Source: Cyanophora paradoxa CCMP329
Taxonomy: Eukaryota; Plantae; Glaucophyta
Length of the DNA stretch: 64,000 nucleotides
Direction of reading: 5' to 3'
Assembly (NCBI GenBank): GCA_004431415.1
Contig: QPMI01000434.1
Location: 124,001 to 188,000 of the forward strand
In this document: positions 16,496-39,138 of the stretch, one piece after another
Position numbering within the stretch: the first letter of the stretch is position 1
Layout: each line of letters opens with the position of its first letter
Program-made: the position numbers and the translations under genes
Notes under the pieces: model-generated
What the model saw: only the letters and a program-made list of their open reading frames with translations
Told to the model about the DNA's origin: nothing
Databases searched by the model: none

Positions 16496-16921
16496 TGTTG
16501 TATACGCATGGACCTCACACCCGGGCAATTCCGCTTCGCTCCATTGCCCCCGATTCCATGCGTTTCCAGTGTATACCTCCAGCCCCTCTTCAGTTAATTC
16601 ACCTTGTACGTCTACGAGACCCTTATTCCCAGGTCTACCAGACTCGGGTCGGAGTCTTAACAAAGAAATATCTAACGACTATTCAGGGCAGAGCTGACAA
16701 CTTGAATAGACGAAGAGGAGCGCTGCCCCCTTGAGCGCGGTCTGTAGAACAACGTGGCAGAATAGGCTAGGCGATATTAATGAGTACAGAGAAGCTAAAC
16801 GAGGAAACGTGTTAAGCTCTAGCTAGATGTAATTGATGTGTACAGAGAAGCTAAACGAGGAAAAAGCGTTAAGCTATAGCCGCACGTAAGGACGGGCCCC
16901 AGAGCGGTCTGGTGCGGCCTC
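16496..16921 (+). repeat. Left terminal inverted repeat
   Basis: TGTTGTATACGCATGGAC...GGTGCGGCCTC is the reverse complement of 38713-39138 apart from two homopolymer-length differences. Contains an internal duplication GTACAGAGAAGCTAAACGAGGAAA. Confidence 0.95.
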
Positions 16922-16945
16922 TGGAGATGTGTCGATGACTTTACC

Positions 16946-17767
16946 TTTCTTTTGTTTTAATTGTTTTAATTGTTTTAATTCGGAGGGTCAAGTTCCTAAG
17001 AAAACTTTGCGGACGCCGTGACGTGACGCTGTGACGTGGCGAGAAAACGGCGAGATACGTGTCACACAAAAGATCACAAGTTTCAAGTTTAAACTTAACG
17101 CTGGCCGGTTGGACGGTTGACCGGTTGGATGCAGTCGCCTAGTCGGTTCGGAGCTAGAGCGCTCCGGCTAGGACCGCTAGACCCAGAGCTATGACTTTAT
17201 CAGCCGAGTGAGCTCTGACTCTCTGAAAATTGATGAAAAGCACAATTAGTTGCGAAATTAACAGGACCGGGTTTGTGGACAAGCTCACGTCCAAACGATG
17301 CTTTCATCACATCGATGCGCCCTGCGCTTACGGACGGACCGGGAAAGCGATTCGTACATCATCAGCTAGCTATAACCGCTGCAAGCTAGCGAGGCTGCGC
17401 GGTGAGAGCCTGGAGGTGCACGACCGGGGTTGTGGACAAGCTTGAACTCTGAAAAAGCCTGCAATTGTTGAACTTTGGAAATAGAAAAGTCGCAAGCCCA
17501 ATTTAATTATTTTGCAAGCTCAGCGGTCAGTCGACGAAACAGGTACCGGTTAGATCCGTCAGACTGCAGGCTCAGAAGTTTCTGCCTTTGGAGCTTTTCT
17601 TTTGTTTTAATTGTTTTAATTGTTTTAATTCGGAGGGTCAAGTTGGCGAGAAAACTTTGCGGACGCCGTGACGTGACGCTGTGACGTGGCGAGATACGTG
17701 ACACACAAAAGATTGGCGCTGATAGTGCGCTGATAGTGCGCTGATAGTGCGCTGATAGTGCGCTGAT
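16946..17767 (+). promoter_or_regulatory. Non-coding left arm: ~120-bp direct repeat (16946-17074 / 17596-17713) plus 11-bp tandem GCGCTGATAGT x4
   Basis: Both copies carry (TTGTTTTAA)3 then CGGAGGGTCAAGTT...GCGGACGCCGTGACGTGACGCTGTGACGTGGCGAGA. Lies upstream of pPolB; regulatory role is inferred. Confidence 0.55.
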
Positions 17768-17902
17768 TGCTAGCCGGAGACAGGTCTTGCAGTAAGTTGT
17801 ATGACTTAAAGGTTTCTCGCATACATACTAGCAATCAGAGATTGTCTGCGATTAAATCCCAAAAAGTTTTCGGCCATCCAATATTGTAGAGACCTATTCA
17901 TA

Positions 17903-20900
17903 ATGGACAGGAACAATCTGAGAGCTGAAATTCGGAGTCTAGCGCAGGAGCTACACAATCTTAGGTACATTAACGGAACATATTTGAACACACTGATGCG
18001 ACTAGCAGACCCACAGAGGGGAACCCACACACAAAATCTTCGAGCTAATCTTTCAACATTGCTTAGACTTAGACAGACGAACCGGCCGCAGCGCCCTTTG
18101 TACCAGTCATGGATAACAAGTCATTTTGAGAACGAACGCAATGCTCGAATTGAAGCCACGCGAGAGTTTGATGAAATTGTAGAGTATGGGATCTCGAATT
18201 TATTTCGCGAGACAGGTCGAGGTGATACCGTGTTAAATTATACTCACTATGCATATCCGGGTTGTTATTTACCAAGGATATTTTGGATATTGATCCGACT
18301 CCAATACCTGAGCGGGTTAAAGAGATCACGATTGAGTTTCTGAGAGAGCTGCGAATTCCAGAGAAAATAGGATCAAGCGTCCTAATTCGGTTTCATTTCG
18401 ATAACTTTCGCATGTATCGCACTCAACTAGCAACAATCGAAGAGGGCACAATGCAGTCGCTCTTGTCAAATCTGGCTGAAAAGATGGAACAATGGATGCT
18501 AGCGCAGCAGCCATATGAAGACAACGACCTTTGGCCAGTAGTGAAAATAGAGGTGCTCATTGCAGAGAACGCTGCAGGCGCACTTGGAAACGTACCGAAA
18601 CTCCATTCAATGGCAAAGCCCTGACCATGAATAAGATCTACTGTCCGATTTCACCAGAAGACAACTGTGTGCTTGAGTGTTTTGAATATGTGAAGCTAAA
18701 CCCTGGAAGAATAAGCCTTGATCGAATTTACAAGCAACTTCAGAGACTGGACTACGGAGGGATTAGAACACAGCTAGGACTGCGGCGAGGAATGATATCA
18801 GTTGATGTGCCAACGATTAATAAGCTGAGCGCTTTTTACAGAATAGACACCAGCGTTTTTGAGTTTTCGCAAGGAAAGTTTAAGCTGCTTTTGCGACCGA
18901 TCTAGGATTTGAAAAACGTGCTCACCTTTGTATAGTCGATGTGCACTGCTACCTGATTAAGGATAAAAGAACGACTGAGATGGAGAAGTGTAGTGCCTGC
19001 GGGAAATGCAGTTCGAACTGGAAAGACACAAGCTAACCTGTCAGTTTTGTGCTAGATGTCGTTGCGCCTACAATCCAATTGAAGATCACACAAACAAATG
19101 CGTTGCCGCCATCAGAAACAAAGGTGTTATTGGAAGAAAGATTACTCCTTGCGAAAAGGAGAGTGAATTTACAGCGATGGATAGCGTGATAGGGGCTGAC
19201 TTTGAAACATTTCCTTGTGATGGCAAGACCCACGTTCCTTATGCTGTTGACACAGACATAATATGCAAGGGCGAAATTGTAGGAACCAAGATGTTTTACG
19301 GTCCTGAAACATTAAATCAATTCATGCAATGGCTGGATGCTTGGGCAGAGAAGACCACAGTAGTATTTTACAACGGTGCTGGTTTTGATCTGATATTCAT
19401 ATACCGATGGCTGATTGAGAATCGGCCAGAAAGCCAGGTGAACGTCATGCGCTCCTCGGGCAAGATTAAGAGTATGAAATGGAAGACGTCAGCAGGAGGA
19501 GAGTTGACGAGTTTTGACCCGTGCCTACATATTCAAGGTTCACTAAAACAGGCTGGAAAGGACTACGGCTGCACGACAATCAAAGGAGACTTTGACCATC
19601 GCAAGATCAAGACGTGGGCAGACGTTGAGACACACAAGGAGGAATGGGAGAATATCTTAGAGCCGACGTGCGATCGATGACGGAGCTATACATGAAATAT
19701 TCGAGTACGAGCTTTGATCTATTTGGAATAAATGTGAATTCCAAACAAACACTTACAGCTTCATCAATGGCTTTTCAGATTTACCGGCAGCTGTTGAAGA
19801 CAGAGCTGCAACTTCCGAAGTATAGTGAAGATCAGGTGTTTCGCAGGGCGATTTACGGAGGTCGCTGTTTACCATTCAAACGCAAGTTTGTCTCGAAGGG
19901 TCCAGATGATTACTTGGTAGATCTGGATGTGGTCTCTCTATATCCAACCGCTATGTACTTTAACCAGTTTCCTACAGGTAAATTTAAGCTAATCAATGAA
20001 CCGGAGGCATTAGAACGTTTTAGAAAGTTCATGTTAAGTCGAAAAATGGAGCAACTGTTCATTGCGAGCATCAGTGCGAAAATTCCTCAGGACCTTGTGC
20101 TTTCTCCGCTACCTCGTCACGAGTCGAATTTGGGCTGGTCGAACCTGAAACCGATCGAGCGCGAGATGTATACATCGGTTGATATCTACAGGGCGATAGC
20201 GCTTGGGGTGGAAATAACAGAAGTTCACGAGGTGTATTTATTTGAAGGCAAGGAGAGAATGTTTAAAGATTACATCGAGAAGTTATACTGTATGAAAGCT
20301 CGTTCAAGGAAGGGCACAGCTCAGTACGCAACAGCAAAGATTCAATTAAATGGTCTTTACGGAAAATTTGCCCAGAGGCCTGTGATCGAAACAACAGAGC
20401 TAGTTTCTAATTACCGCCGATTTAAGGAGCTACAGCGGACGTCTACGATTACAGACATCGAAATTGAGAGTGAAACACGGATGTATGTGACATATGAAGT
20501 ACCTGAGAGCAAACGTGATGCTTGTGTGTCGAAGCCCTGTTTTATTGGAGCATTTATTCTGTCCTACAGTCGCGAGATAATGGACAGGTTCCTAGTAAAG
20601 ATGAACTCTTATAAAGACATCGAAGCCATGCCGTTTTACACGGACACGGACTCTCTTGTTGTGCACAGGAAATTTGCAGAGCTGGTGACTGATTGCATGA
20701 AGCGGCCCTACTCTGTGGAGGGAATGGGCGAAGAGGAGGCGAACAGGGTGATCTGCGAGAGCGAACTTGGAAAACTAGATTACGATATCCAGGGACACAT
20801 TGTGGAGGCGTATTTCGTTGGGCCCAAGGTGTACTGTTGTCGGTACGTGAAAGCGAACGGTGAATCGGACGTGCATGTGCGTGCCAAAGGAATACCAAAA

Positions 20901-21224
20901 AGCTGGATCGAAGAGAACTGGCTTTCGAATGATCCGGAGATGAGGAAGGGGCACCTCCATTCTCGGGTTGCTTTGGAAGCGTTCAAGCAGATGCTTGAGA
21001 GCCGGTATCAGCCGGAGTGCAAAATAGAGTCTAAACTATCTCGTGTCTTCAAACCGAATGGAAAGCAACGCGAGGAGGGGATAGGTTTTAGTTCAATCAT
21101 TCAGATTCCATTCAGCAGAGTATTAAATAAGACGGAATACACAAAGCGAAAGATAATTTCGGATGACTATTACAGCACAGTTCCTCATGAGTACATCAGC
21201 CAAAATTCAGGAGGCATACTATGA
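17903..21224 (+). CDS. polB: Protein-primed family B DNA polymerase (pPolB), broken by ~5 single-base frameshifts
   Basis: ExoI ADFET, ExoII YNGAGFDL, ExoIII YLRADV, motif A LDVVSLYPTAM, motif B KIQLNGLYGKFAQ, motif C YTDTDS, GPKVYC, VRAKGIP. N-terminal region has EDNCVLECF...HCYLI and Cys/His Zn-finger-like residues. Confidence 0.95.
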
Positions 21225-22322
21225 TCCAGAAATAGGGCTTCAGTCTGCCACACGTATTGCCAAGAAGTTGAAAATACCAGTTTCCAGGGTTAGAGAAGTG
21301 CTGGAGAAATTATCGACAGCGCAAAGATTTGTGAGGCCGCAAAAAGAGAAACCATTCACAAGTATAACATACGACAAAGCAGAGAAATACTACGAGGTGG
21401 ACCTAATCGACGTGACTCCGTACGCTAGAACAAACCGCGGTATTCACTTTATAATGAACGCAGTGGACGTAGTGACTCGGAAAGCCTACAGCATTCCAAT
21501 GAAGAACAAGAGCGAAAGTACACTCCTTTCAACACTACGGAAACTCATAGATAGTTTTCCAGCCAAGCCGGATATTATTCAGACAGATCAGGAGTTTAAA
21601 GCTTCAGCTGGTAGTTTGTTAGAAGCTGAGGGAATTAAGCACAATGCTGTGGAAGCGCATCGACCACAAGCAAACGGCAAAATAGAAAGATTTAATGGAA
21701 CTTTGAAGCGAGTTATTGCACGGTATATGGAGGCATATGACACGGATAGGTACATCGACAAGCTGCCCGCTTTCTTGCGCAATTATAATTCGTCAGAGCA
21801 TAGGTCGATTGGTACATCGCCAAACGCTGCAGCAGAGAATCCGAAGGAGACAATCGCGCGCAACGATTATCAGCGAGAGATCTACGAGCAGCAACACTAC
21901 CTGAAGGAGGTCGAATTTAAAGTAGGAGACCTAGTTCGAGTTAAGCTAACCAGGAGAACCTTCGATAAATCGACAAAGCCAACCTTCTCGAAAGAAGTAT
22001 TTCGAATTGAGTCGATTGGGGTTTTGGACCCCTTCTAAGATTTAAACTCGCTGGATCGGATACACCAGTGACCTACCAGCAACTTTTAAAGGTCCCAGTA
22101 GATTCAGAGGAACGTCGTGCGGGAAATGCAGCACAGCGGTCACAGCAGCGCAGAAAGAAGGAGCTAAATCTGATGCGAGAGAATTTAGATCGAGTGGACA
22201 TAGAAAAAAATAAGAAGCTGCTTCGCCTTCAAAAGCAACTTGCGACAGCTGGAACTGTCAAGTTAAACCCTGGTGGAATATTAGAGAGAACAAAGACCAG
22301 AAGGCTAGTCAAAGAGCTATAA
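21187..22322 (+). CDS. int: Retroviral-like (rve, DDE) integrase of Polinton type; C-terminus frameshifted near 22020
   Basis: YEVDLID, NAVDVVTRKAY, IQTDQEF, NGKIERFNGTLK, YNSSEHRSIGTSP, FKVGDLVRV...FDKSTKPTFSKEVFRI. Overlaps the polB stop. Confidence 0.93.
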
Positions 22323-22681: not shown

Positions 22682-22954
22682 ATGATTCAAATAATGCCCG
22701 CAGGAACAATTCGATTTGGGAAGTACCGCGGTGAAACTCATCTTAAAGTAGTTTTTAGCGACCCAAAGTATGCGGAATGGTTGTTATCTTGGCCGCATCT
22801 TCGTGAGTACGACAAACGTGAATTGCAGCACGCTTTTGAGATTTGTCAATTAGAAGAACCAGCGATGGTTCAGGGAAGGATTGATCGAGCAAAACAGCAA
22901 AGGAGACCTACTGTGGAGGATCTTCCGGATTTGCCTGATTTTGACTTGTCTTAA
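22682..22954 (+). CDS. Small protein with FGKY(K/R)G...DPxYxxW motif (DUF3820/ExoX C-terminal-like)
   Basis: IRFGKYRGETHLKVVFSDPKYAEWLL. Confidence 0.65.
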   Translation: MIQIMPAGTIRFGKYRGETHLKVVFSDPKYAEWLLSWPHLREYDKRELQHAFEICQLEEPAMVQGRIDRAKQQRRPTVEDLPDLPDFDLS

Positions 22955-23008: not shown

Positions 23009-23581
23009 ATGGAGGTCACAATTCCAGATGTTCCCGAAGGCGCTGTTGCTATCCCGCTTGGTGGAATCCGCAATCATCGTCGAGTAATTGTCGCCTATGC
23101 ACTTGTTAGTCAGGATGATGCTCAACGTGTTCTTGGATTTCGGTGGAGATTAAATAACTATGGATATGCTTTCACAACGATCAATGGTGAGACCGTGTAT
23201 TTGCATCGATTTATCAGCGGCAATCTTGAGAATGGATTAACTGTTGATCACATAAATCTAAACAAGCTTGACAATCGCCGCGAAAATTTGCGTTTGGCAA
23301 CAAAGCGCCAGCAGCAGCTGAACCAAAACCGGCGGGTCACAAACACATCAGGTTTCACTGGTGTTTACTTCGATAAGTGGTGTGGTAAATGGCAAGCACA
23401 TTATCGGATAAATGGGCATCGGAAGCACATCGGTCTGTTTCAAACAGCAGAAGAAGCTGCTAAAGCCAGAGACACCTATGCCCTTGATCACACTTCCGAA
23501 TCTGATCGTCCATTCCTGCGTATGAATTTCACAAACGAATCCTCCGTCCACCCATCGCTCCCTTCAGTTGTGAACTCGTAG
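23009..23581 (+). CDS. HNH-AP2 homing endonuclease-like protein
   Basis: YLHRFI...VDHINLNKLDNRRENLR (HNH_3 type), then NTSGFTGVYFDK...KWQAHYRINGHRKHIGLFQTAEEAAKARD (AP2 domain). Confidence 0.92.
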   Translation: MEVTIPDVPEGAVAIPLGGIRNHRRVIVAYALVSQDDAQRVLGFRWRLNNYGYAFTTINGETVYLHRFISGNLENGLTVDHINLNKLDNRRENLRLATKRQQQLNQNRRVTNTSGFTGVYFDKWCGKWQAHYRINGHRKHIGLFQTAEEAAKARDTYALDHTSESDRPFLRMNFTNESSVHPSLPSVVNS

Positions 23582-24167
23582 AATTCGCTTCAGACACATA
23601 AGGCGTAGCGGGCTTTACAGCTGCATCATCGAAAGCTTGTGAAGCCTTCTCTTTTTCGTTTTTCAGATACCGCAAATCCGGCACGTCCATGGGTCTGTGC
23701 TTAAACATTTCGCTGCGCAACATGTCGCGGATCTTAGCTCTTTCTTGCTTGTCTTTTACATACGATTCGATATTAGCCGACCTCGCTTCTAGATCGCGCA
23801 ATTTAGCAGCTAACTCGTCAAACTGCGTCTTTGACACCGTTGCTGTCTTTATTTTTGGACCGGAATATCTAGGCTCAGACGCCATGGCTTGGATAATTCT
23901 AGCAGCATCATCGTCGATATCGGACTGCATTTCGTTTACAGTTTTAGCCTGGCTTTGTCGGTCGTCAATCGCACTGGCATTAGCAGATGCGGAGGCAATC
24001 ATTTTTGCGACAGGTGCATTTAAACGTGGGTCACTAGATAATTCACCACTAGGATCAGCAACAGCTGCGCCTTCAGTTGACCCACTTTCAATCAGTGGAG
24101 CATTGGGCTCAGATATATTAACCTTGCGTCGTTCACGATATCCCTTCTTTGGAATGCCGCGACCCAT
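23529..24167 (-). CDS. Hypothetical viral protein with basic termini and coiled coil (possible core protein)
   Basis: 212-aa ATG ORF directly downstream of the ATPase on the same strand; MGRGIPKKGYRERRK ... GGRRIRL. Confidence 0.6.
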   Translation of the reverse strand: MGRGIPKKGYRERRKVNISEPNAPLIESGSTEGAAVADPSGELSSDPRLNAPVAKMIASASANASAIDDRQSQAKTVNEMQSDIDDDAARIIQAMASEPRYSGPKIKTATVSKTQFDELAAKLRDLEARSANIESYVKDKQERAKIRDMLRSEMFKHRPMDVPDLRYLKNEKEKASQAFDDAAVKPATPYVSEANSTSSQLKGAMGGRRIRL

Positions 24168-24176
24168 CTTATTTTA

Positions 24177-24923
24177 TTAAGCTAAGATTTTAAAATGCTT
24201 CTTTTTAGAGATAACAGGTGATTCTTCTTTCTTACGTTCTTCAGGTTCATTCTTAACCCACTTCGTAAAACGAAAACTCTTATCTTCAACTGCCTTGTCA
24301 ACGAACCAGGCCGTATCGTATTTGGTCCCATCAAGGACTAGGCACTGATAATCGTGAGCCCAAGTTTGGAACAAAGCAATAAATTCGTCTTTCGGGAGAT
24401 GACTAAACTCTCGATAGATAGCCTCAAGCTCTGTGTGATTAGAATAGCTAAAGAAAAAACAATAATCAGCATTAGAACGAATCGATTGACTAAGAGCTGT
24501 TAGTTTTTGCGACATTAAAATCGTAGAAATGCAAAAATGGCGGCACTGCATAAAAAGTCGATTAACAACCTTGCTGTTTCGAAGATCAACAGTTTCAGAT
24601 GCAGCAACAAGATCGTCCAATACAAGTAATATCTGCGGCGCTTTCTTTTTGTTTTCGATTAGAGCGCGCTGTGAATCAATGATTTCTGCAACAATGGCAG
24701 GTTGAAAATCATCGTAAAGCTCTTTTGTTATTGCTTCGTATTCACCATTGAATTTGGTGGCCGTAAACACAACCACTCGATTAATCTTTGGATATAGCAG
24801 TCGAAGCAGATGCTTTGTGCAATAGAACGATTTGCCACTATTAGATTTCGATATAAACAGGGCTTTAAAAGGGACCCTCATATCGCTAGGCTGGAACTTT
24901 GCGAGCTCTTGAGACTCATCCAT
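24177..24923 (-). CDS. A32-like (FtsK-HerA superfamily) genome-packaging ATPase
   Basis: Walker A SKSNSGKS (first Gly replaced), Walker B LLVLDDL, LFMQCRHFCISTILMSQ, IRSNADY. Confidence 0.92.
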   Translation of the reverse strand: MDESQELAKFQPSDMRVPFKALFISKSNSGKSFYCTKHLLRLLYPKINRVVVFTATKFNGEYEAITKELYDDFQPAIVAEIIDSQRALIENKKKAPQILLVLDDLVAASETVDLRNSKVVNRLFMQCRHFCISTILMSQKLTALSQSIRSNADYCFFFSYSNHTELEAIYREFSHLPKDEFIALFQTWAHDYQCLVLDGTKYDTAWFVDKAVEDKSFRFTKWVKNEPEERKKEESPVISKKKHFKILA

Positions 24924-25001: not shown

Positions 25002-26390
25002 CTAGAGATTAACTTTCCGCAGTCCCGCAGCATCAACAATTAGGACAGTGTGAAGGAGAGCGCGAATTTGGACGTAAATCTTGTTGTTAGCATCATACGC
25101 AGCAGGGTTCATGATATTCAGGAAGCAGCTGCTGGAGTTCGTCAGATCTACGAAACCAGTTTGAGCAGCATTTCGAATCGATTTATCCCCACTAATGCAA
25201 AATGGCAATCCAGTCAGAACATACCGATTAAGGGGTGCGTCGAGATTGGAGCACTTGAAGACATCAGCGATGAGTTCAGCACCTTGCAATAGAGGAACAG
25301 GCTCATTTGAATAAAGCCGCTGTCCATTCAATTCGCAGGAAATAGTAATATCGCGAGCATTAGCCTCGGTTTTGAGGACACTGTGTTTTCCATCAGTTTG
25401 GTTCATGTTTGGCTGCTTGCGAATGCTAACGAATAGGCCGTAACAAAGTCCACTGATTTGAGACAGATTAATTCGGGTGGGCGCACCAGCACCAGCATAA
25501 GTAATTGAATCAGCATCAACCCAGCCGACATCGGTAGCGGGAATTGCGATTCCAGACGTTTTGACTTTCTCAATCACCTGGGCAAAAGTGGCCTCATCAA
25601 CGTTGATGCAATGAGCAATAATCTTTGGATTCGAAAGCTCCGGATTGGCAGGGGTGACACTGAGAACATTGGGAGTTATATTCTGGCCGATGTTTGCAGG
25701 GGATGCAGCAGCAGCTCCCACGCTCCCAAGTCCATCTTCTTTAGAAGCATCACCGCCTATGGCATATTCTGTTACAAACCTACCACCATAGCTGGTTTCG
25801 ACGAAGCCCTGGGCACGATCACGGAACCAAACCTCGACGGAAACCTCGCCAGATAGAGCACCAATCGGAAGCACAGAACCCTCCCAGGGACAGGGGATTT
25901 TTACACTGAAAATACCTCCAGTGCGATTGCTCCCCTGAGGTGGTGTTCCATGGAGCCAGCCACCGGATCGGTACTTCTTTTTAAGCTGAGCATCATCATT
26001 GAAAATCAGAGCGCTGTGAACAAGCCAGTCCTCGGGGACAATGTAGCTGTAGGAAGCATATTTGATTTCGATTCGCTTTACGAGAGCACCAACCGATCGC
26101 AAATAACCAGTGCGAACCAGGTCAGTGTCACCAGTAAATGCTGTCAGCTCGGGAAGGGTAAACTGGAGTTCGAGCCCCTGAAGGAAATTGTAGCGGGGCA
26201 GGAAATAAGTAACCCTCTTTCCGAAGCAGTCTCCATAGTCATTGCTTGGGTTGACAACAACACGCACAGGCTTTGTTTGGCTGGTTAGACCTAACATAAG
26301 CTCATTGTTCATGAAGAAGTCCTTTGCTTCCTGCGGAGTTGTCAGGAGCTCTTTGAGACCGAGCCGCTGCAAGTTTTGGGTAACATCCAT
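25002..26390 (-). CDS. Double jelly-roll major capsid protein (NCLDV-like N-terminal motifs)
   Basis: 462 aa between the ATPase and penton; FGKRVTYFLPR..LQGLELQFTLPEL, VGALVKRIEIKY, VKIPCPW...LPIGALSGEVSVEVWF, C-terminal GFVDLT; beta-rich pattern. Confidence 0.82.
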   Translation of the reverse strand: MDVTQNLQRLGLKELLTTPQEAKDFFMNNELMLGLTSQTKPVRVVVNPSNDYGDCFGKRVTYFLPRYNFLQGLELQFTLPELTAFTGDTDLVRTGYLRSVGALVKRIEIKYASYSYIVPEDWLVHSALIFNDDAQLKKKYRSGGWLHGTPPQGSNRTGGIFSVKIPCPWEGSVLPIGALSGEVSVEVWFRDRAQGFVETSYGGRFVTEYAIGGDASKEDGLGSVGAAAASPANIGQNITPNVLSVTPANPELSNPKIIAHCINVDEATFAQVIEKVKTSGIAIPATDVGWVDADSITYAGAGAPTRINLSQISGLCYGLFVSIRKQPNMNQTDGKHSVLKTEANARDITISCELNGQRLYSNEPVPLLQGAELIADVFKCSNLDAPLNRYVLTGLPFCISGDKSIRNAAQTGFVDLTNSSSCFLNIMNPAAYDANNKIYVQIRALLHTVLIVDAAGLRKVNL

Positions 26391-28762: not shown

Positions 28763-30238
28763 TGTAACGTCCCCGGAAATCAAGCCGGAATGCATTCACA
28801 TTTATAAATTCGTTTGTTATAATTTGCACATAGTTATATACCTGTGGGGTGATCAAATGCGAGTCACTATGCATTAGATCGAAGCCTGCCATTGTTGGGT
28901 TCGCAGCAAGCACATTTGCTAGGACCGTATTTTCAAAAAGCCTCCCATCTTGGACATATCCTAAGTTGGTCAGAATGCTGAAATTAAATAGGACTCCGGC
29001 AGCAAAAGCTGGCCCATACATAATGATTTGATGTAGCTCAAAAGGCTTTGTAAATTCGACTCTGATCCAGGGATTAGGTAGAGTGCCACCTTGGAACCCT
29101 GTTGAGTTGGGTCGCACATGAGAAGGTGGGTGCAATTCCTCAAAGTCGTTGCTTATGATGTTTGCATCTGGAATTATAAACCAGTTGACATCAAATGGCG
29201 GCTCAACTGTTAAAGTTGACGATATGATTAGTCTGTCATCGTTCAGTAGGTTGTAGTTCGCCAATAGAAAGCTGCAGAGCGCATTTATTTTAGCATTTAT
29301 TTCGATTTGTTTCAGCCATAAATCTGTTGTAGAAATCAAATAAGAAATATTCGATGGGGAGGCATCATCAAGCTTGCTCATGACTGCAGCTGGCAGAGGA
29401 ACACTTAAACGCCAGTATCTAGTTAGATTCCTATCTGCATCAACTGGAAGCAGTTCCTGCATTTGAAAGTGCGATTCCAGCTCGCTACCAGCCATTAACA
29501 TAGAAATGATTGGGCTGCCTGAGAGGGATAGGATCCAGCCCAGTGCGCCCCAGCCTGACGTCTCCGAATTCGAAAAGCCTGCAGTCAATTGCTCACTGGC
29601 TTGGACTTCACCACAGCTAATGCTCACAAGAACAATTGGATCTTCTGCATCGTAAATTTTACTGGCGTGGCTGAGTGCAGCAACTGAGGGATTATTCAAA
29701 CAGGCAATTGCCCCGTCAACAAGGTTTTTGTCCCTAGAACCTTCGGTGGAAAGAATGTAGGTGCTGCTGAAGATGCTCTCACTGCATCACGAATCAGCGT
29801 GCTTGAATATGGCCCATCCTTCGTAAAAACTACTGGCTGCATCCGAACTGTATCAAACGCTGTAATTAATACGTCTTTTGTCGATTCTGCAATTGTGTAG
29901 TCCAGGGCAACGTCTGTAAGCACCGACTCCAGAGGATTTGCATCATAGCGGCTTCCTGAGAGCAAGCTTGTGAGTGATCTCGGATTTGCAAATATTGTTG
30001 GCAGGTTCGTTTGATATAGACTCAAGATATCACCTGCAGAATATCGGTAAGCAAGAACAGAGCCTGGAGCTGATGGGATCGCCAATCCGGCCGCTATTAT
30101 TGCCCCTGTTGAGGTGCCTGCAAAGAAATCAAACAGCTGTGGTATTGCTTTCCCAGTAATCGCCTCAATCCGTTGTAGAATTCGGGCTATGACTATTCCA
30201 CGAGCACCTCCACCTGATAGTGAGAGAATGACCTTCAT
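28755..30238 (-). CDS. Patatin-like phospholipase with extra C-terminal beta-rich domain; one frameshift near 29720
   Basis: ILSLSGGGARG (oxyanion loop), FAGTSTG (nucleophile), RASSAAPTFFP. Adding one T restores FVDGAIACLNNPS and joins ORFs 29696-30238 and 28755-29699. Confidence 0.88.
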
Positions 30239-30262: not shown

Positions 30263-33200
30263 ATGTCCTACATCTTGAAGAAGCCAGTGCCACTTCGTAG
30301 ATCTCCAGATTTCGTTGATGATCGACTCATAAATATTCGCGTATTTGGAAGCATCTTGGCAGACTTCAATGCTGATCGTGACATCCACAGGACCGAGTTT
30401 AGTCGACCAGCTGCATTAATTCTGCGGAACTCTCACGTTGGTGCCCCAGATATTGCACAGAGATTCTGTCTTGGTCCCACTGAGAACTTTGTTGCTGAAA
30501 TTATTGGGTCCAGGGCGTTGCCACGACACCTGCGAATTGCCTCCTCAGGCACAGTCTCCAAGTATGATTCTGGTAGATTGATATTTAGGCTCCAAAATGA
30601 TAGAGGGGTCCATACATCAGCTCTACGTCTAATTGATGAATCAAATGATGTCGCAAACAAAACTGCGGCTCAAATCACTGGGCGAATTCTCCTTGGCGAA
30701 GATGCTGCAATATCAGTGCTTGCATCACAAATTCAGCCGTTCCCCTGGGATCTACTATATACCGATGCACGAGAAGCAAATCTTCTTTTCGGGTTTGATG
30801 TAAATCAAATCGATACCGAGCCAGCCACCAGGTTCGATATTCCTGGATGCACCTTCGGCTCTATCTTGATTGAGGCTGACAGGCACCTGCTCCCGGCATT
30901 GCATGATAGATATGACCTAGGGCTTCGCACCAGGCAGTGGAGAAATATTCATGGAACTAATATTTATCAGGATGGTAAGAAGGTTAGCACTGAAGAGCAG
31001 GTTATCAACATTTTCAACTACTACTTCGGACCTATTGTCCCTATACCACCTCTTCCAGGGTTACCAAAGCCGCCAATCCCGGATGGACCTGGTCGAGAGC
31101 GAGTTGCTGATGAGACAGTTCCTTTCGGTCAACATATTGTCAGTTGGGAGCAAGTTCGCAATAAACCTATCTTCGAACCGAAAAAACAAATAGATGAACA
31201 GTATTTACCTCCTGAAATCGATATATTAGAGCTTGATGATTACCAATTTGTCCCAGATGAGGAAGAGTTTTTACCTGACGGTTTCGACCCGCAAGAGTAT
31301 GAGTATGATCAATACGACCCAAATGAGGAAGAGTATTTACCCGATGGTTTAGATCCACAAGAGTTTGAGTATGAACAGAATTATGAACCCCATGAGGAAT
31401 ATTTAGCAGATGGTCTCGAACCACCAGTTGTGGATTATGAGCAACCTTATGAACCCCATGAGGAGTTTTTACCAGATGGATTACAACCGGAGCTTTTTGA
31501 GTTCTTTCCAGATTGGGAACAGATCAACAACAAACCAGCGAGATATCCACCAGAGGATCACAACCATGATTGGGATGAGATCTTGGGTAAACCTGAGAAA
31601 TATCCACCTGAAGATCACAGGCATGATTGGGGCGATATCGATGGAATTCCACCTGAGTTTCCGCCGGAAGACCATTTACATATTTGGAGCGAAATACGAG
31701 AGCAGCCCACTTTTGCATCAGCAGGAAATGTATTATTAGGAGATATTAACAATGGTGTGAGTCTCTACCAAAATATAGACACACCAGAAAGATTACAATT
31801 AAACGATTATTATGTGAATCGTCAGGGAATCGATGCAGGCACCACAATGGATGGCGAATTGTATATTAGACCACCCACAAGGGATGTAATATTACCACTT
31901 GGTGGTGGTATTGAAATAAAAGACACAAAACCGGGAATCTACTTAACCAGTTATTATGCGGAAGACGTCCCAATGACAGGAGGTTTAATATCTTTACCAT
32001 CAGATCCGGCAAACTATACAGACAAAAACGCAGCCATACAAATTAATGTGACGAATGTAAGCGATTTGGATGGATCAAGACCGAAATTAATATTCAGCCG
32101 TGAGCAACTCGCAGCAGAAACACTTTTAGGAGATCGTGACGATTATAAACAATGTGAGGTAGCATGGATTAAAACAAATTATAATGGTGGAGTTCCTGAG
32201 GGTCTTTTAGAAATCAATCAGAGAGCCTCAGCGAAAAACATTCATAACGAAAATATTTCAAGAGTCGTAACAGAAGATTATTTTAGATGGGATAATATCC
32301 CTGACGCACCCGAAAAATTCCCACCCTCAGACCATGAACATGTTAAAGCCGATATTACAGATTTCGCACATGAACACGTCAAAGCCGATATTACAGATTT
32401 TGCCCACACTCACACAAAAGATCAAATAACAGATTTCGCACATGAACACGTCAAAGCCGATATTACGGATTTCGCACATGAACACGTCAAAGCGGATATT
32501 ACAGATTTCGCCCATACTCACACAAAAGCAGATATCTCAGACTTTGCCCATACTCATCTAAAAGCAGATATTACAGACTTTGCACATGCTCACACAAAAG
32601 CAGATATCACAGATTTTGCACACACCCACCTTAAAGCAGATATTACAGACTTTGCACATACTCACCTAAAAGCAGATATTACAGATTTTGCACATACCCA
32701 CACAAAAGTGGATATCTCAGATTTTGCACATAGGCACAATTGGGACGAAATAGACGAACAGCCAGTATTCGCACAATTGAATGCAATCGGAAACGTTTTT
32801 AATGGAGTCACACTTTACCAATCGATTAATACACCTGAAAGGCTATTTTTGAATGATCATTATGTTAGTCTCAATGGGTCGTTTACAGGTCAAGACGGCA
32901 CACCGATGGTGGGAACTCTTGCAGTAAGATTACCCAGGGATCCAATCGTAAATGGAGTGTATAGTGGTGATTTTAATGTAGGAGTAAATGATACTTTCCC
33001 CAGTATCTATGTCACGAATTATCACCCGGGTGAAACAGGACAAGTAGCGGATTTTTCAGCAGCGATACAAGTAAATGTAACAGATCAAAGTGCATATGAT
33101 GGAGCAAGACCTAAGATAGTATTCACAAGGGAGAAAGTTGTAAACTATCTTCCTGTTGCAGGACAACCCACAGATGATCACGGAAAATGTGAGATGGCGT

Positions 33201-36200
33201 GGATTAAGACAACATCAGGAGGCGCCTTAGAAGTCAATCAGAGAATGGCGGCAAAAAACTTACACAATACCACCCTTTCCGGTGTTGTTACAGATGATTA
33301 CCTTACCAATAAAGGATATCTCACGTCGGCGGATTTAAGCAGTTATGCAACCGATGCAGAATTAGCGGCGGCACTTGCGAATTATCTACCTCTTACAGGT
33401 GGAACCGTCACCGGAACCGTTAACGCTACCACATTACAAATTGGTGGAACCACAATACCGAAAGGTTATGAATTTGACCAATTAGATGTGGTTTCGACAG
33501 ATAGAAGCGCAAATAATTGGACTGTTAATTGGACAGGTCATAGAACGGGACTAACCGGATGTTATACGACACCTGAGAATGACGCAGATGTTACGGGTTG
33601 TTGGATGCGTTGGACAATTCCAGAAGGTATGAAATCGTTTTATATTCAACTTTTACTGTGGCATAATTGTCGATATTTCGATATTTACGGGCAAACTGTA
33701 AATGGACATCAACATTTCCTAAGACGAATAAATAACTATCAAGGACTTCAGGATGTTGCAGTTCAAGATGGAACATACCCAGCTATAATATTTACTTCAG
33801 TAAACTGCGAATTTTACAGTAAAATATATGTTCAAGGGCGAAAAGGTCGCATTTATCTTACAGGTGTCTTTGGTTGGAGTCGACAAAGAGCAACTGATAA
33901 TGATGCAGGATTATTGCATTACGATAATATTGCTTTCAATCCTGTTGGCAAATATTCCGAGTTTGATGTTGTAAGTGGTTGGAATAGCACAGGTGTAGCA
34001 TTCCCAGCTGGGGCTTGGACAACAGCATGGAAACCCACAACAGATAACCCAGTAGAGGGTTTTTATTGCAACCAGACAGATGATGAAAGTGGCAGTGGCT
34101 ACATGCAGTGTGTTGTTCCAGCAGGAATGAAAACCTGTCACATACAATACTTATGTTGGACGAATTCAAGATATTTTGATATTTATGGATACCGCAATGG
34201 TCGTTGGAATTATATTATGAGAGTGAATACGTATCAAAATGTTCAAAACACAGCCGACACAAATTGGCATTCGAGTTTATTATGGACTTCCGTATTTTGT
34301 GGGAATTTCTCTCATATTGGAATTTTTGCAAAGAAAGGACGAATTTACATTGGAATGCTTGGATGGACAAAAGAAGTAGGAAGAACAGCACCAGCGAATG
34401 GTTTGATTAGTTGGGATAATATTTACAGTCGTCCCGCTTTATTTACAGCCGCAGACCTCCCACAAACAGCAACATGGGCAACAAATACATGGTTAAAATC
34501 AACAGATAACTACGAGCGGTTCTATTTTGCAAATGCAAATGCTACATATATTCGAGGTAGACCTAATAACGATAATGCGTGTGTTGTATTCAGAAACTCA
34601 GCAGATGCTACAATTTTACAATCATATGAAAACGGCAACCTTGCAGTTACTAATACTGTGTCAGCTCCGACTCTAAGTGGAACAATTATTAATGGGGGTT
34701 CAATAAATGCAACTACAAACTATAAATTTGGCGACAAAACAATGCCTCGATGTGTAGAGTATGACGCAACTGTTGCAGGAAATTCGCCACATGGTTATGC
34801 AGGAGGTTGGGGTTTTGAAGGTGGAACAGCATGGGAACCCTACTATAATTACGGTGGGTATGCTTACAATAATGAGAGTGGCGACACTGTTGTTAACGGC
34901 TCATGGGTTGATTACACAATACCCACTGATTTATATACGGGAACAGCCCACTTAACATATCTCCCTTGGGTAAATTGTCGTTACTTTGAGATTTGGGGAA
35001 TTAATAGACAAGGAAATGCGGTTTTCATTGCAAGAGTGAATAGTTATCATCAATATGAAAGCGCACCAGATGGAAACTACAATGGTTTACAAAATGTCCC
35101 TATTATGTTGGGAAATCGCTTTATTCGCCTTCGTATTATTCCAAAGGTAGGAAGAGTTCACATAATGGGCATTGGATTTACTCGCACTTGGACAGGAAGT
35201 AGTTATGGTGGTCACACAGGTTATGTTTCTTGGGATAACATTTATAGTAAGCCAAATCTACTAACACCAAGTTTAGTTGGAAACATTATAGGTTTTGATA
35301 CTTGGAGTGGAACAGGTAGTGGTGGTCTATCATTTAGTGGTTCTTGGGGGACAGGTTGGACAGCTTCTGTTTCTAATCCTGTGGATGGATTTTATAGTAT
35401 CGTTGAAGGTGATTCAACAAGTGGAGACTGGGCGCGAATTGAAGTCCCAGCAAATATGCAAACATGTCATGTTCAATATTTGTGTTGGTCGAATTGTCGA
35501 TATTTCGATATTGGAGGCTATCGAGCAGGTCGATGGTTCCACATTATGCGAGTTAATACTTATCAGACTGTCTCAAATTATGGAACCACAGATTATCACG
35601 ATGGTTTGGCGTGGGCTTCTTTTGCTTGTGATTATTTCTCACATGTTAGATTTGTTGCAAGAAAAGGGAGATGTTATATTGGTATGGTTGGATGGACGAA
35701 AGAAAAAGGGAGAACCTCACCAGCAAATGGTATGATCAGTTGGGATAATGTATATAGTAAAGATGCTCGCACAACTTGGGCAACCGGAACTTGGATAACA
35801 TCAGATGAAGGTAATGGGAGAGTTTATTTTGGTTCATCATCAACTACATACATTAAAGGTTACGGAGCAACAGTAGTAGAGTTTAGAAATACGTGGGATA
35901 CAAATATAGCATATTTGGAACAGAGCGGATACCTGTATATTGCGGCATATTTGTCACAGGGAAGTGACAGAAGATACAAAACAGACATTAAAAAGATAAC
36001 AGGCGCTCTTTCAGCGATTGAGAAATTAGAAGGAGTGAGTTTTAAACGAATTGGAAGCGAAAAAGATGGAACAAAATTAGGTTTAATTGCGCAAGATGTA
36101 GAAAAGGTAATACCAGAGGTTGTTAACGTGAAAAAAGACGATGGCTATCTATCTCTCGAATACACGGGTTTGGTTCCTGTTCTCATTGAAGCTGTTAAAG

Positions 36201-36265
36201 AATTGTCCCAGAAATGCAAAGATTTACAAGATCAAATAGATCAATGGCGCAGTCAGACTGCTTAA
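30263..36265 (+). CDS. Giant modular virion fibre/spike (2000 aa) with C-terminal Peptidase_S74 intramolecular chaperone
   Basis: LLP...YDLGLRTRQWRNIH, acidic repeats, W..I..KP..(Y/F)PP.DH.H repeats, 11 HxHxKADITDFA repeats, YLPLTGGTVTG, four homologous Trp/Tyr-rich modules, and SDRRYKTDI...GLIAQDVEKVIPEVV...LEYTGLVPVLIEAVKEL. Confidence 0.88.
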   Translation: MSYILKKPVPLRRSPDFVDDRLINIRVFGSILADFNADRDIHRTEFSRPAALILRNSHVGAPDIAQRFCLGPTENFVAEIIGSRALPRHLRIASSGTVSKYDSGRLIFRLQNDRGVHTSALRLIDESNDVANKTAAQITGRILLGEDAAISVLASQIQPFPWDLLYTDAREANLLFGFDVNQIDTEPATRFDIPGCTFGSILIEADRHLLPALHDRYDLGLRTRQWRNIHGTNIYQDGKKVSTEEQVINIFNYYFGPIVPIPPLPGLPKPPIPDGPGRERVADETVPFGQHIVSWEQVRNKPIFEPKKQIDEQYLPPEIDILELDDYQFVPDEEEFLPDGFDPQEYEYDQYDPNEEEYLPDGLDPQEFEYEQNYEPHEEYLADGLEPPVVDYEQPYEPHEEFLPDGLQPELFEFFPDWEQINNKPARYPPEDHNHDWDEILGKPEKYPPEDHRHDWGDIDGIPPEFPPEDHLHIWSEIREQPTFASAGNVLLGDINNGVSLYQNIDTPERLQLNDYYVNRQGIDAGTTMDGELYIRPPTRDVILPLGGGIEIKDTKPGIYLTSYYAEDVPMTGGLISLPSDPANYTDKNAAIQINVTNVSDLDGSRPKLIFSREQLAAETLLGDRDDYKQCEVAWIKTNYNGGVPEGLLEINQRASAKNIHNENISRVVTEDYFRWDNIPDAPEKFPPSDHEHVKADITDFAHEHVKADITDFAHTHTKDQITDFAHEHVKADITDFAHEHVKADITDFAHTHTKADISDFAHTHLKADITDFAHAHTKADITDFAHTHLKADITDFAHTHLKADITDFAHTHTKVDISDFAHRHNWDEIDEQPVFAQLNAIGNVFNGVTLYQSINTPERLFLNDHYVSLNGSFTGQDGTPMVGTLAVRLPRDPIVNGVYSGDFNVGVNDTFPSIYVTNYHPGETGQVADFSAAIQVNVTDQSAYDGARPKIVFTREKVVNYLPVAGQPTDDHGKCEMAWIKTTSGGALEVNQRMAAKNLHNTTLSGVVTDDYLTNKGYLTSADLSSYATDAELAAALANYLPLTGGTVTGTVNATTLQIGGTTIPKGYEFDQLDVVSTDRSANNWTVNWTGHRTGLTGCYTTPENDADVTGCWMRWTIPEGMKSFYIQLLLWHNCRYFDIYGQTVNGHQHFLRRINNYQGLQDVAVQDGTYPAIIFTSVNCEFYSKIYVQGRKGRIYLTGVFGWSRQRATDNDAGLLHYDNIAFNPVGKYSEFDVVSGWNSTGVAFPAGAWTTAWKPTTDNPVEGFYCNQTDDESGSGYMQCVVPAGMKTCHIQYLCWTNSRYFDIYGYRNGRWNYIMRVNTYQNVQNTADTNWHSSLLWTSVFCGNFSHIGIFAKKGRIYIGMLGWTKEVGRTAPANGLISWDNIYSRPALFTAADLPQTATWATNTWLKSTDNYERFYFANANATYIRGRPNNDNACVVFRNSADATILQSYENGNLAVTNTVSAPTLSGTIINGGSINATTNYKFGDKTMPRCVEYDATVAGNSPHGYAGGWGFEGGTAWEPYYNYGGYAYNNESGDTVVNGSWVDYTIPTDLYTGTAHLTYLPWVNCRYFEIWGINRQGNAVFIARVNSYHQYESAPDGNYNGLQNVPIMLGNRFIRLRIIPKVGRVHIMGIGFTRTWTGSSYGGHTGYVSWDNIYSKPNLLTPSLVGNIIGFDTWSGTGSGGLSFSGSWGTGWTASVSNPVDGFYSIVEGDSTSGDWARIEVPANMQTCHVQYLCWSNCRYFDIGGYRAGRWFHIMRVNTYQTVSNYGTTDYHDGLAWASFACDYFSHVRFVARKGRCYIGMVGWTKEKGRTSPANGMISWDNVYSKDARTTWATGTWITSDEGNGRVYFGSSSTTYIKGYGATVVEFRNTWDTNIAYLEQSGYLYIAAYLSQGSDRRYKTDIKKITGALSAIEKLEGVSFKRIGSEKDGTKLGLIAQDVEKVIPEVVNVKKDDGYLSLEYTGLVPVLIEAVKELSQKCKDLQDQIDQWRSQTA
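32333..32728 (+). repeat. Coding tandem repeat, 11 x 36 bp (HxHxKADITDFA)
   Basis: Units such as CATGAACACGTCAAAGCCGATATTACAGATTTCGCA repeat in frame within the fibre gene. Confidence 0.9.
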
Positions 36266-36296: not shown

Positions 36297-36605
36297 ATGG
36301 CGACGTATCCACTTGGTGGAACTCCTTCCACTACTTCTGAGCCTGTCGCTCTTGCATTCGATACTATCAAACTTGTAGCCGCGCTACAAAATGTCGAAAA
36401 AACAATTCAGCAAACTAACAAACTGTCACCAGTTGTCAATGAGTATAAAAACCTCTTGGTTAATGTCCTTGCGCAATCGGCTTATGGCGAACCTGTTGCT
36501 AAATACTCTGAGTGCGATAGCAATATCAAAGCAATGACAGCCAATATTCAAGCTCTTTCTGTTGCTTACCAAGCCCTTGGAGCGAATCTAATCACTTTGG
36601 CTTGA
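36297..36605 (+). CDS. Small helical hypothetical viral protein
   Basis: 102-aa ATG ORF with AT-rich upstream sequence, same strand as its neighbours. Confidence 0.6.
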   Translation: MATYPLGGTPSTTSEPVALAFDTIKLVAALQNVEKTIQQTNKLSPVVNEYKNLLVNVLAQSAYGEPVAKYSECDSNIKAMTANIQALSVAYQALGANLITLA

Positions 36606-36647: not shown

Positions 36648-37502
36648 ATGGGCGAATATAATCGGGTTCAGCTACCTATCTATTCACTTGGATCCCCTGC
36701 TACTCACTTTCGCCAGCATGAGGTAAATGATGAGGTTCGCGGTCTGGAATCCACTGAACGTCCTAATTCTAACGGGAATGCTTTTGATAAGAATTCGATT
36801 ATTCGCGTAAAAGAACTCCGAGCTGACAAGAACTCTGGTGTAGTTAAAACCACTCGACTCCTCGTAAGCAATGCAAATTTCTTCCAGCCTACTAATGGAG
36901 GCCCTGATGCTTACAGTGTTGATCTGAAAGCCCTTGACTTCGATAAGAATTCTGCTGCTGTTACTGTGAGATCAGGTGGAGCTTTTATTGGTGGTGGATG
37001 TCGTGTGTCCGGTCAACTCTCTTCTTCGATTGCATACAATGATGTCCCAGATACTCTTGAACAAAATGTGGAGAACCCGCAACGAATTCGGTTCTATACA
37101 CCTGTTGCACAGCAACCTTTTCTTCACTTCTATGTTGCTTCATCTGTCACTCTTGAAAATTCAGAGTTGGTTTCCATTACAGGAACTGATCGTGTGAGAA
37201 GGAATATTCCTCTTCCCACAGCAATGCTTTCGATGTGCAGAGCAAACAACAATCAACCAGGTCACAATTACCTATTCTTTGTTCAAGCATCAAACCATTT
37301 CGGTAGAGGATATTGTGTTTATAACAATTTGACATTTACTTATGATTTGTTTGTCACTGAGGTAGGAGTTTATAATACTATGATAATTGGACTGAGAACA
37401 GATATAGCTGCTGTTTCAGCACTTCGTGGTGTGAATATTGCTGATATTTTTACAACCGGATTTTACCAGGAGCCAGATGTTATTGACGATCCAACACCTT
37501 AA
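36648..37502 (+). CDS. Fibre-like structural protein, paralog A
   Basis: N-terminal ~130 aa homologous to the next gene; contains AAVTVRSGGAFIGGGCRVSGQL, a Gly-rich fibre-shaft-like motif. Confidence 0.6.
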   Translation: MGEYNRVQLPIYSLGSPATHFRQHEVNDEVRGLESTERPNSNGNAFDKNSIIRVKELRADKNSGVVKTTRLLVSNANFFQPTNGGPDAYSVDLKALDFDKNSAAVTVRSGGAFIGGGCRVSGQLSSSIAYNDVPDTLEQNVENPQRIRFYTPVAQQPFLHFYVASSVTLENSELVSITGTDRVRRNIPLPTAMLSMCRANNNQPGHNYLFFVQASNHFGRGYCVYNNLTFTYDLFVTEVGVYNTMIIGLRTDIAAVSALRGVNIADIFTTGFYQEPDVIDDPTP

Positions 37503-37525: not shown

Positions 37526-38349
37526 ATGACTGAAATTGAGCGTATTGTCACGGCACAACTTTCGCTCGCAGCCCCAGCTACACATGTTTTACAACATTCT
37601 ACTTTTGACGATGTAGAAGGTCTTGAATCAACAGAGGTTCAACCTACAATGAATACCTTCGGATCTACACATAAACTTAGATTGCAGGAACTCCGATGTG
37701 ATAAAAATAATGGTGTGGTCAAAACTACAAAGTTGCTAGTTACAAATGCAAATTTTAGCGCCCATTATGGCGATCCAGACAGCTACGGCGATCCTCTTTC
37801 GACTTATTCCTTCGAATCTCGTTCGGGAGCTATTAACTGCCGAAATGGTGGCGCATATGTTGGCGATGGTCTTCGTGTTGGTGGAGCTATCGGAGCTCCT
37901 CTCTTTGTGAACGATCAACCGAACCGATTGATAATTTAACGCGTATTCGCACCTACGTTCCCAGCATGAATGCACCATATATTATTAAGATCTTTCCAAT
38001 CGTTGTTAATGAGCAAACATCAGTAGTTGATTCTCTGGTTGAAATTGGTGATCATTTCAAGGTAGTAGTGGATATCCCACCTGATATCTACGCTCTCTGC
38101 CAGGTTGAAGGTGGAACTCCGAATATTACAGTGGTAATAACTCCTTACGATAACTTTGGAATCGCTTATCATGGTGTAAATTTCGGATTAGAAGATTATC
38201 AGTTTTTAGTAAGAGCTACCAGGTTTGGTATCTACAAATGTATCCTTTATGCTGAACGAACCGATGCTATTGCTAAACAGAACACATATGCAGAGTACTA
38301 CGGCACTAATAGGTATTTTCCTATATTCGGCAGCGATACAGCTCCATAG
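37526..38349 (+). CDS. Fibre-like structural protein, paralog B (probable frameshift near 37930)
   Basis: SLAAPATHVLQH...VEGLESTE...ELRCDKNNGVVKTTKLLVTNANF...GGAYVGDGLRVGG matches paralog A. ORFs 37526-37939 and 37966-38349 probably form one gene. Confidence 0.55.
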
Positions 38350-38387
38350 CTGCATTCCTTTGTTTTTTTATATTTTTCCATTAATAG

Positions 38388-38714
38388 ATGGATTTGCTTC
38401 GAAAATGTTTGGATATGTTCCATCTCAACGTCACCAGCAAATTGAATTGTAGTTGCTGTGAGACGACCATTAATCTCGAAATATCAGACACAGAAGGCTC
38501 TCGCACCCCAGAAACTCAGGTTTCGCCTATTAACACACCCAGGACTTCTAGGTCCAATTCTCCATTTACTCGAACCGATTCACCTGTACCTTGGCTTGAT
38601 GCTGAAGGCCGAAGATTGTCTTGGCCTCCCCCAAATATCCCGAAGCCGCTGAAAAGAAAAAAGTCCTTGCTATCAAGTTTCAGAAAGGAGAAGCAACCCG
38701 ATCAGGTGGAATGA
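38388..38714 (+). CDS. Hypothetical Ser/Pro/Thr-rich viral protein whose stop abuts the right TIR
   Basis: 108-aa ATG ORF with CSCC, SP/TP-rich middle and basic KRKK tail. Confidence 0.5.
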   Translation: MDLLRKCLDMFHLNVTSKLNCSCCETTINLEISDTEGSRTPETQVSPINTPRTSRSNSPFTRTDSPVPWLDAEGRRLSWPPPNIPKPLKRKKSLLSSFRKEKQPDQVE

Positions 38715-39138
38715 GGCCGCACCAGACCGCTCTGGGGGCCCGTCCTTACGTGCGGCTATAGCTTAACGCTTTTTCCTCGTTTAGCTTCTCTGTACACATC
38801 AATTACATCTAGCTAGAGCTTAACACGTTTCCTCGTTTAGCTTCTCTGTACTCATTAATATCGCCTAGCCTATTCTGCCACGTTGTTCTACAGACCGCGC
38901 TCAAGGGGCAGCGCTCCTCTTCGTCTATTCAAGTTGTCAGCTCTGCCCTGAATAGTCGTTAGATATTTCTTTGTTAAGACTCCGACCCGAGTCTGGTAGA
39001 CCTGGGAATAAGGGTCTCGTAGACGTACAAGGTGAATTAACTGAAGAGGGGCTGGAGGTATACACTGGAAACGCATGGAATCGGGGGCAATGGAGCGAAG
39101 CGGAATTGCCCGGGTGTGAGGTCCATGCGTATACAACA
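38713..39138 (-). repeat. Right terminal inverted repeat
   Basis: Ends GTCCATGCGTATACAACA, followed by TSD ATATAG. Confidence 0.95.

Follow-up and report, generated by a model that had tools for sequence, protein, structure and literature searches.

Integrated viruses of the glaucophyte alga Cyanophora paradoxa have already been catalogued in large number. Table S4 of Bellas 2023 (PMC10120064) gives 366 major capsid proteins (MCPs) for its genome, in clusters 21 (272 proteins) and 29 (94), which are marked as new and bear no group name, and adinto-like PolB and integrase variants have been reported from C. paradoxa contigs (Starrett 2021, PMC8502044). Table S6 of Bulzu 2025 (PMC12220804) has a glaucophyte row of 156 endogenous viral elements (EVEs; 156 was taken as the number of elements), of which 49 carry PF03175, 85 an rve integrase, 40 HNH_3, 37 S74, 89 lipases, and 66 PF02675, a family with 0 entries in the oomycete and rhizarian rows. 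None has a tyrosine recombinase, and all nine protease columns read 0, whereas the same table finds proteases in 262/557 oomycete and 586/1393 rhizarian EVEs; the MCP-POL profile was found in 2/156 glaucophyte versus 462/557 oomycete EVEs. Discoidin domains, some fused to patatin, are noted there in rhizarian and glaucophyte polinton-like viruses (PLVs). A 2026 preprint by Bellas and Sommaruga (bioRxiv 10.64898/2026.06.19.733378) describes small Nucleocytoviricota-related PLVs of 15-30 kb, with RVE in 57-62% of Zora and VC218 and protein-primed PolB (pPolB) in Zephyr. Here, we describe a 22,643-bp element at positions 16496-39138 of a 64,000-nucleotide stretch of C. paradoxa CCMP329 DNA (the window; GenBank assembly GCA_004431415.1, contig QPMI01000434.1, positions 124,001 to 188,000). 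We consider it quite probable that this is a complete endogenous PLV, likely a copy of the family catalogued in this species, whose predicted double jelly-roll capsid is nearest to giant-virus structures.

The boundaries, both terminal inverted repeats (TIRs), and the 6-bp target site duplication (TSD; ATATAG on both sides) that a first-pass annotation had proposed from the sequence proved exact (Table 1). The two 426-bp TIRs differ by two 1-base indels in C/G runs and by no substitution. The empty site is present in the reads: in 4/4 DNA runs, contigs pass from one flank to the other with just one copy of the hexamer between them, and when one hexamer copy is kept, the reading frame of the surrounding long interspersed nuclear element (LINE) stays open for 535 amino acids (aa). 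The element is a complete endogenous virus inserted in this host reading frame, with a GC content of 43.8% versus 68-69% in host stretches 1-12000 and 52000-64000. In these four DNA runs, other contigs continue from 39138-39140 into flanks that differ from this one; the element family is therefore multicopy, its copies ending at the same terminus. Three substitutions relative to the main read contigs lie at mirror positions and are common to both TIRs, and both ends therefore belong to one variant. The LINE flanks are identical to the read contigs, as would be expected if both the insertion and the LINE are young, and this agrees, together with the unsubstituted TIRs and the empty site, with the recent integration proposed earlier. 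The LINE target is itself multicopy: pieces recur at 15309-15512 and 44622-45014, the copy also covers 15780-16495, and the long C-terminal frame closes with a tail rich in proline and acidic residues. No tRNA was found.

Seventeen genes fill about 90% of the element (frameshifted pieces counted once). The earlier count of about 17 intronless genes stands, except that five of them are frameshifted in the window sequence. Pfam matches confirmed the pPolB, rve integrase, Pox_A32 ATPase, patatin, HNH_3 plus AP2 endonuclease, and Peptidase_S74 on the 2000-aa fibre. They support a small integrating DNA virus whose genes for replication and integration are of the Polinton type. The N-terminal pieces of pPolB are collinear with full-length homologs of 1060-1150 aa, with a predicted domain order of terminal protein (TP), vOTU, zinc finger, exonuclease, and polymerase; 3/13 tested homologs reach the pieces at 18290-18890, and 2 of those 3 reach the vOTU piece. 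A vOTU-type Cys motif lies near 18660 and a His motif near 18938, both also present in homologs P0002-P0006. This domain is the likely terminal-protein-releasing protease according to Krupovic et al. (PMC11071308), so that the element, although without a capsid protease, is probably not without all proteases, judging from the motifs of this putative vOTU domain. The C terminus of the fibre is, by family, a self-cleaving S74 chaperone, a second reason not to call the element protease-free; the fibre also has 66-bp and 36-bp repeats (phage tail repeat) and repeated globular modules. The first-pass annotation had seen no maturation protease, which holds for adenain/Ulp1 enzymes, but it missed the vOTU-type pair. 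A FastTree tree built from the best 46 among 120 pPolB pieces groups the window with environmental pPolBs and L009 (support 0.55, next node 0.92; no labelled references). The closest relatives of pPolB and rve lie in L009 (3157-10217), an environmental element with the same order of these two genes; its MCP is unrelated and touches Capsid_N weakly (E 0.079). The pairing of the closest pPolB and rve with an unrelated MCP fits the module swapping described for PLVs.

The MCP had no Pfam match, and none of seven family members matched Pfam Capsid_N. A profile search of 1.84 billion proteins gave eight MCP matches, of which five were used and three long repetitive ones (P0106, P0107, P0109) were dropped; the relatives are P0001 (65% identity), P0104 (38-39%), and a group at 22-25%, whereas a word-index search gave one MCP homolog and zero ATPase homologs. 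The distant group (P0105, P0108, P0110, P0112) lies in ENA contigs of up to 11.9 kb. P0001, alike over its full length, is a C. paradoxa protein that Table S2 of PMC10120064 lists as an EVE capsid with an HHpred match to an iridovirus MCP (probability, 98.47); another five MCPs of Cyanophora in that table match capsids of ascovirus, Singapore grouper iridovirus (SGIV), or Pyramimonas orientalis virus (PoV). Our MCP thus falls within the 25%-identity cluster threshold of a listed Cyanophora EVE member, and sequence likeness suggests that the element is likely one copy of this large family. Scans of IMG/VR and JGI contigs with MCP, ATPase, and the MCP profile, which need near-exact peptides, found no relative, and PDB sequence searches and INPHARED gave no match.

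A single-sequence MCP model (mean predicted local distance difference test [pLDDT], 33) was discarded in favor of one built from seven sequences, which is a double jelly-roll (mean pLDDT, 56). Foldseek against BFVD and PDB ranked nucleocytoplasmic large DNA virus (NCLDV) capsids first (Paramecium bursaria chlorella virus 1 [PBCV-1], E 4.8e-14), and VIA aligned 321 residues with the PBCV-1 capsid chain (Z, 20.9; root mean square deviation, 4.1). VIA Z was 16-21 for PBCV-1, faustovirus, poxvirus D13, iridovirus, African swine fever virus, and Emiliania huxleyi virus, 14.7 for Melbournevirus, and 13.3 for a comparative SGIV model; it was 13.7 for the tectivirus PRD1, 11.6-12.3 for virophages (mavirus, Sputnik), and 8-9 for adenoviruses. 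Identity to all structural matches was 6-15%. In the ESM Atlas, 24 of the 30 nearest MCP clusters carry Capsid_N or Capsid_NCLDV (scores, 0.97-0.98), and penton 1 scored 0.98 to DUF5901/Nucleocytoviricota clusters and 0.97 to Sputnik V18/19, a lead only; the recognition values (1836, 2168) are below the tool's threshold. The model predicts a double jelly-roll MCP closest to Nucleocytoviricota capsids, and the NCLDV-like capsid module of the first-pass annotation is upheld in that its best matches (Atlas for MCP and penton 1, Foldseek and VIA for the MCP) are Nucleocytoviricota proteins; the MCP and penton motifs it quoted are present in the translations. BLASTP gave no alignment between the two pentons. 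Penton 2 has no database match, and its DSRDR sequence is presumably a penton motif.

Five genes are split in the window sequence: pPolB (five frameshifts), rve, penton 2, patatin, and the open reading frame (ORF) at 37526. Were these breaks real, this would be a decayed copy with dead pPolB, integrase, penton 2, and patatin, as the at least 10 frame breaks suggest, and the three TIR substitutions absent from the main contigs would mark a minor variant that those contigs may not represent. We think this unlikely. Read contigs were compared over 16200-31000, where the 12 indels listed (of 18) fall at 11 sites (pPolB has five, penton 2 and the TIR two each, and rve and patatin one each); the break near 37930 lies outside this range. 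Each of the 11 listed sites is a base run in which the window is one base short and 3/3 DNA runs have one extra base, and the observed frame changes agree with these sites. Moreover, MCP, ATPase, and the 6-kb fibre have no in-frame stop, the TIRs are free of substitutions, and the same long-read artefact is reported for protist EVEs by Bellas 2023 (PMC10120064). Errors in the long-read consensus are the most likely source of the frameshifts, and the family therefore probably holds intact copies. Introns were also considered as the cause of the split genes and rejected, as the single extra bases in the reads account for the frame changes. A further alternative, that one of the ORFs without a family is a very divergent adenain/Ulp1 protease and the element Polinton-like with a full morphogenesis module, draws on the fact that divergent viral proteases can escape Pfam profiles; the 284-aa ORF and its paralog, considered by sequence only, do have Cys and His. 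We judge it very improbable: Peptidase_C5 and C48 had no match at E≤1 in 104/104 six-frame open stretches of ≥60 aa, no coding frame of the element holds a cysteine-protease nucleophile motif, the 212-aa and 110-aa ORFs lack Cys (the former is therefore no cysteine protease), and the 102-aa ORF lacks His. The only sensitivity control for these profiles is the published one, in oomycete and rhizarian EVEs (PMC12220804), and that table, which finds proteases elsewhere, gives none for glaucophytes. What weighs against our interpretation of the element as a complete PLV of the catalogued family with a giant-virus-like capsid is that 204/462 residues of the middling MCP model have pLDDT below 50, that the exact LINE-element junction is bridged by no contig among the 32 of 139 pieces listed, that short-read contigs pool all copies, so that the breaks could be real in this one, and that 65% MCP identity does not show this copy to be in the published set.

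Where the capsid module belongs is a separate matter, and the possibility that it truly sits in the Nucleocytoviricota-related radiation (Zora, VC134, VC218, Zephyr, Alpensee, mriyaviruses), as a glaucophyte branch using pPolB and rve, is compatible with our explanation and concerns placement. We give this an even chance. The Atlas clusters of MCP and penton 1 and the VIA ranking of most NCLDV capsids over tectivirus, virophage, and adenovirus speak for it, as does an NCLDV penton profile in 15/156 glaucophyte EVEs and in 0/557 oomycete and 0/1393 rhizarian ones (PMC12220804); the subthreshold recognition, the low structural identity, the lack of Capsid_N in seven members, the absence of any recognised viral late transcription factor (VLTF), HUH, or Mriya48, and the glaucophyte ATPase counts (PLV profile, 107/156; NCLDV profile, 1/156; PMC12220804) speak against it. 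Somewhat short of even is the view that the element belongs with the ordinary PLVs that lack a protease (Aquintovirus grade), that its capsid has diverged strongly, and that the likeness to giant viruses stems from the choice of capsids for which reference structures exist. According to Bellas 2023 (PMC10120064), most MCP models of Polintons and PLVs look like NCLDV capsids, and in Table S2 of that paper the same reference capsids (iridovirus, ascovirus, PoV) are also the best match for elements of unrelated protists (Aureococcus, Bathycoccus, Plasmodiophora, Vitrella, Paulinella, and Acanthamoeba, among the 10 of 29 occurrences listed); because PLV capsids give the same best matches, the NCLDV likeness of the fold is not diagnostic of placement. 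Likewise, the unrelated L009 MCP touches Capsid_N, and none of the PDB fold-search rows listed is described as a Polinton or PLV capsid. Against this view, no Atlas row listed for the MCP is led by Preplasmiviricota, and of 630 ORFs in the 52 loci related through pPolB, none matched the MCP profile (best E, 0.33). A bolder and rather doubtful proposal is that the Cyanophora elements form a separate, unnamed deep branch of Nucleocytoviricota-related small viruses, of which this would be the first shown as a complete young glaucophyte provirus with full Polinton-type replication and integration.

Under our preferred explanation of a complete endogenous PLV, and by analogy with known Polinton and PLV biology, we infer the following life cycle. 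Integration of the linear genome into a LINE copy would have been the work of the rve integrase. Once the element is excised or released, its linear DNA would be replicated by pPolB, primed by a terminal protein that the putative vOTU domain of the polymerase itself would cut off. The A32 ATPase may package the DNA into an icosahedral shell built of MCP and the two pentons, without processing by adenain. Folding of the trimeric fibre would fall to the S74 chaperone, which would then cleave itself off, and fibre and patatin may serve attachment and membrane entry. As no RNA polymerase or late transcription factor was detected among the element genes, transcription would be borrowed from the host nucleus or a coinfecting giant virus.

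TABLE 1 Features of the element and its insertion site (window coordinates)
Feature	Position	Strand	Evidence or remark
Left TSD copy ATATAG	16490..16495		Single copy at empty site in 4/4 DNA runs
Left TIR	16496..16921	+	426 bp; inner 56-bp tandem pair
pPolB	17903..21224	+	PF03175 E 5.7e-50 and 2.7e-7; five frameshifts
rve integrase, retroviral-type, D-D-E motifs	21163..22319	+	PF13683 E 2.2e-8, PF00665 E 3.6e-7; one frameshift before C-terminal part
Small basic ORF, 91 aa	22309..22584	-	No family
90-aa ORF	22682..22954	+	Weak ExoX-like C-terminal motif, PF20600 E 0.003, below cutoff
HNH-AP2 endonuclease	23009..23581	+	PF13392 E 2.9e-11, PF00847 E 1.5e-6
212-aa ORF adjoining ATPase	23529..24167	-	Zero cysteines
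A32-type packaging ATPase	24177..24923	-	PF04665 E 9.9e-9; Walker A, Walker B, arginine finger
MCP, 462 aa, predicted double jelly-roll	25002..26390	-	Model, Foldseek, VIA; 65% to C. paradoxa EVE MCP
Minor capsid protein (penton) 1, 333 aa	26436..27437	-	ESM Atlas, lead only
Probable penton 2	27420..28335	+	DSRDR motif (presumed); frameshifted near 3' end; no database match
110-aa ORF	28430..28762	+	No family, no Cys or His
Patatin-like phospholipase	28755..30238	-	PF01734 E 1.4e-22; C-terminal beta domain; one frameshift
2000-aa fibre	30263..36265	+	PF13884 E 6.1e-16, PF12789 E 1.3e-6, PHROG tail fibres
102-aa ORF	36297..36605	+	No family
284-aa ORF	36648..37502	+	Paralog of next gene, 46% identity over 138 aa, E 4e-36
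Paralog of 284-aa ORF	37526..38349	+	Split by one frameshift near 37930
108-aa ORF, ends at TIR	38388..38714	+	No family
Right TIR	38713..39138	-	Read contigs exit element at 39138-39140 into other flanks
Right TSD copy ATATAG	39139..39144		Same hexamer as left
Host LINE retrotransposon	39145..44059	-	RVT_1 E 8.4e-12; endonuclease-like, reverse transcriptase, C-terminal ORFs; frame resumes left of 16490

A 34-bp motif (94% identical) stands at 22973-23006, before the HNH-AP2 gene, and at 28359-28392, before the 110-aa ORF, with weaker copies near 27416 and 17486, and is a candidate viral promoter element. About 1 kb of noncoding DNA inside the left end holds a block of 99 to 129 bp, present twice and containing tandem repeats of 9 bp, and a tandem array with an 11-bp unit (repeat stretches at 16946-17074, 17596-17713, and 17716-17767), possibly an origin or promoter region. 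The tandem paralogs next to the right end are alike in their N-terminal 138 aa, have unrelated-looking C-terminal parts, and matched no family; a motif suggests that the 284-aa ORF may be fibre-like. The C-terminal beta domain of the patatin had no match in our searches and is presumably discoidin-like.

The element is likely a clean example of a known integrated-virus family and no new kind of virus. The first-pass annotation had placed it in a possibly undescribed lineage between Polintons and giant viruses, but the MCP family, its NCLDV-like HHpred matches, and the protease-less set of pPolB, rve, lipase, and S74 are already tabulated (PMC10120064, PMC12220804), and the Nucleocytoviricota-related PLVs with RVE or pPolB in the 2026 preprint take away the novelty of a small integrating NCLDV-like virus. 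A term search of the main text of that preprint gave no mention of Cyanophora or glaucophytes, although its trees and hidden Markov models may already place the family; our literature search, which covered few subscription papers, found no dedicated description of the glaucophyte family. It would be worth knowing with which viruses the unnamed Cyanophora capsid clusters branch. If with Nucleocytoviricota, a group known mostly from metagenomes would gain a named, culturable host, in which capsid assembly without a maturation protease and the need for a giant-virus helper could be tested; if not, the element simply adds to the several hundred endogenous PLVs of a single algal genome. Should the clusters prove to be a deep branch, virions of a living link between Polintons and giant viruses would best be sought in this host, which is in culture and has hundreds of copies.

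Among described systems, Maverick-Polintons (Polintoviricetes, including Gosseviruses) share the TIRs, 6-bp TSD, TP-vOTU-pPolB, rve, A32 ATPase, and double jelly-roll MCP; the element differs in having no detected adenain-type protease, two pentons, and an MCP unrelated in sequence. Mriyaviruses (Yaraviridae, Gamadviridae) are alike in combining a small genome with an NCLDV-like MCP but are described as having 35-45 kb, VLTF2/VLTF3, and HUH and no integrase (PMC11253617); at 22.6 kb, with rve and pPolB and no Pfam match to VLTF or HUH in six frames, the element falls outside Mriyaviricetes. It likewise falls outside the virophages (Virophaviricetes), whose capsids score well below those of NCLDVs in VIA, and no protease was found. 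Nucleocytoviricota-related PLVs (Zora, VC134, VC218, Zephyr, Alpensee/GKS2) resemble it in size (15-30 kb), NCLDV-like capsid module, and the RVE common in Zora (VC102) and VC218, and Zephyr also in pPolB and a long lipase-bearing ORF; Mriya48, HUH, and VLTF3, frequent in that group but not universal, were not recognised in the element (no such Pfam match in six frames), no sequence link to IMG/VR contigs was found, and Zephyr is without a known endogenous member. The features of PLVs sensu lato are present: a double jelly-roll MCP (by model), an A32-like ATPase (PF04665), penton 1 (by ESM Atlas only), a length within 14-40 kb, TIRs, and the TSD that goes with an encoded rve. The nearest system is that of the Cyanophora EVEs of clusters 21 and 29. 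This copy lacks the PF02675 domain of 66/156 members, which we take to be AdoMet decarboxylase, and the primase-helicase genes of others; it shares with them the lack of a protease, rve instead of a tyrosine recombinase, pPolB (in part of the members), HNH_3, the S74 fibre, a lipase, and an NCLDV MCP as best HHpred match.

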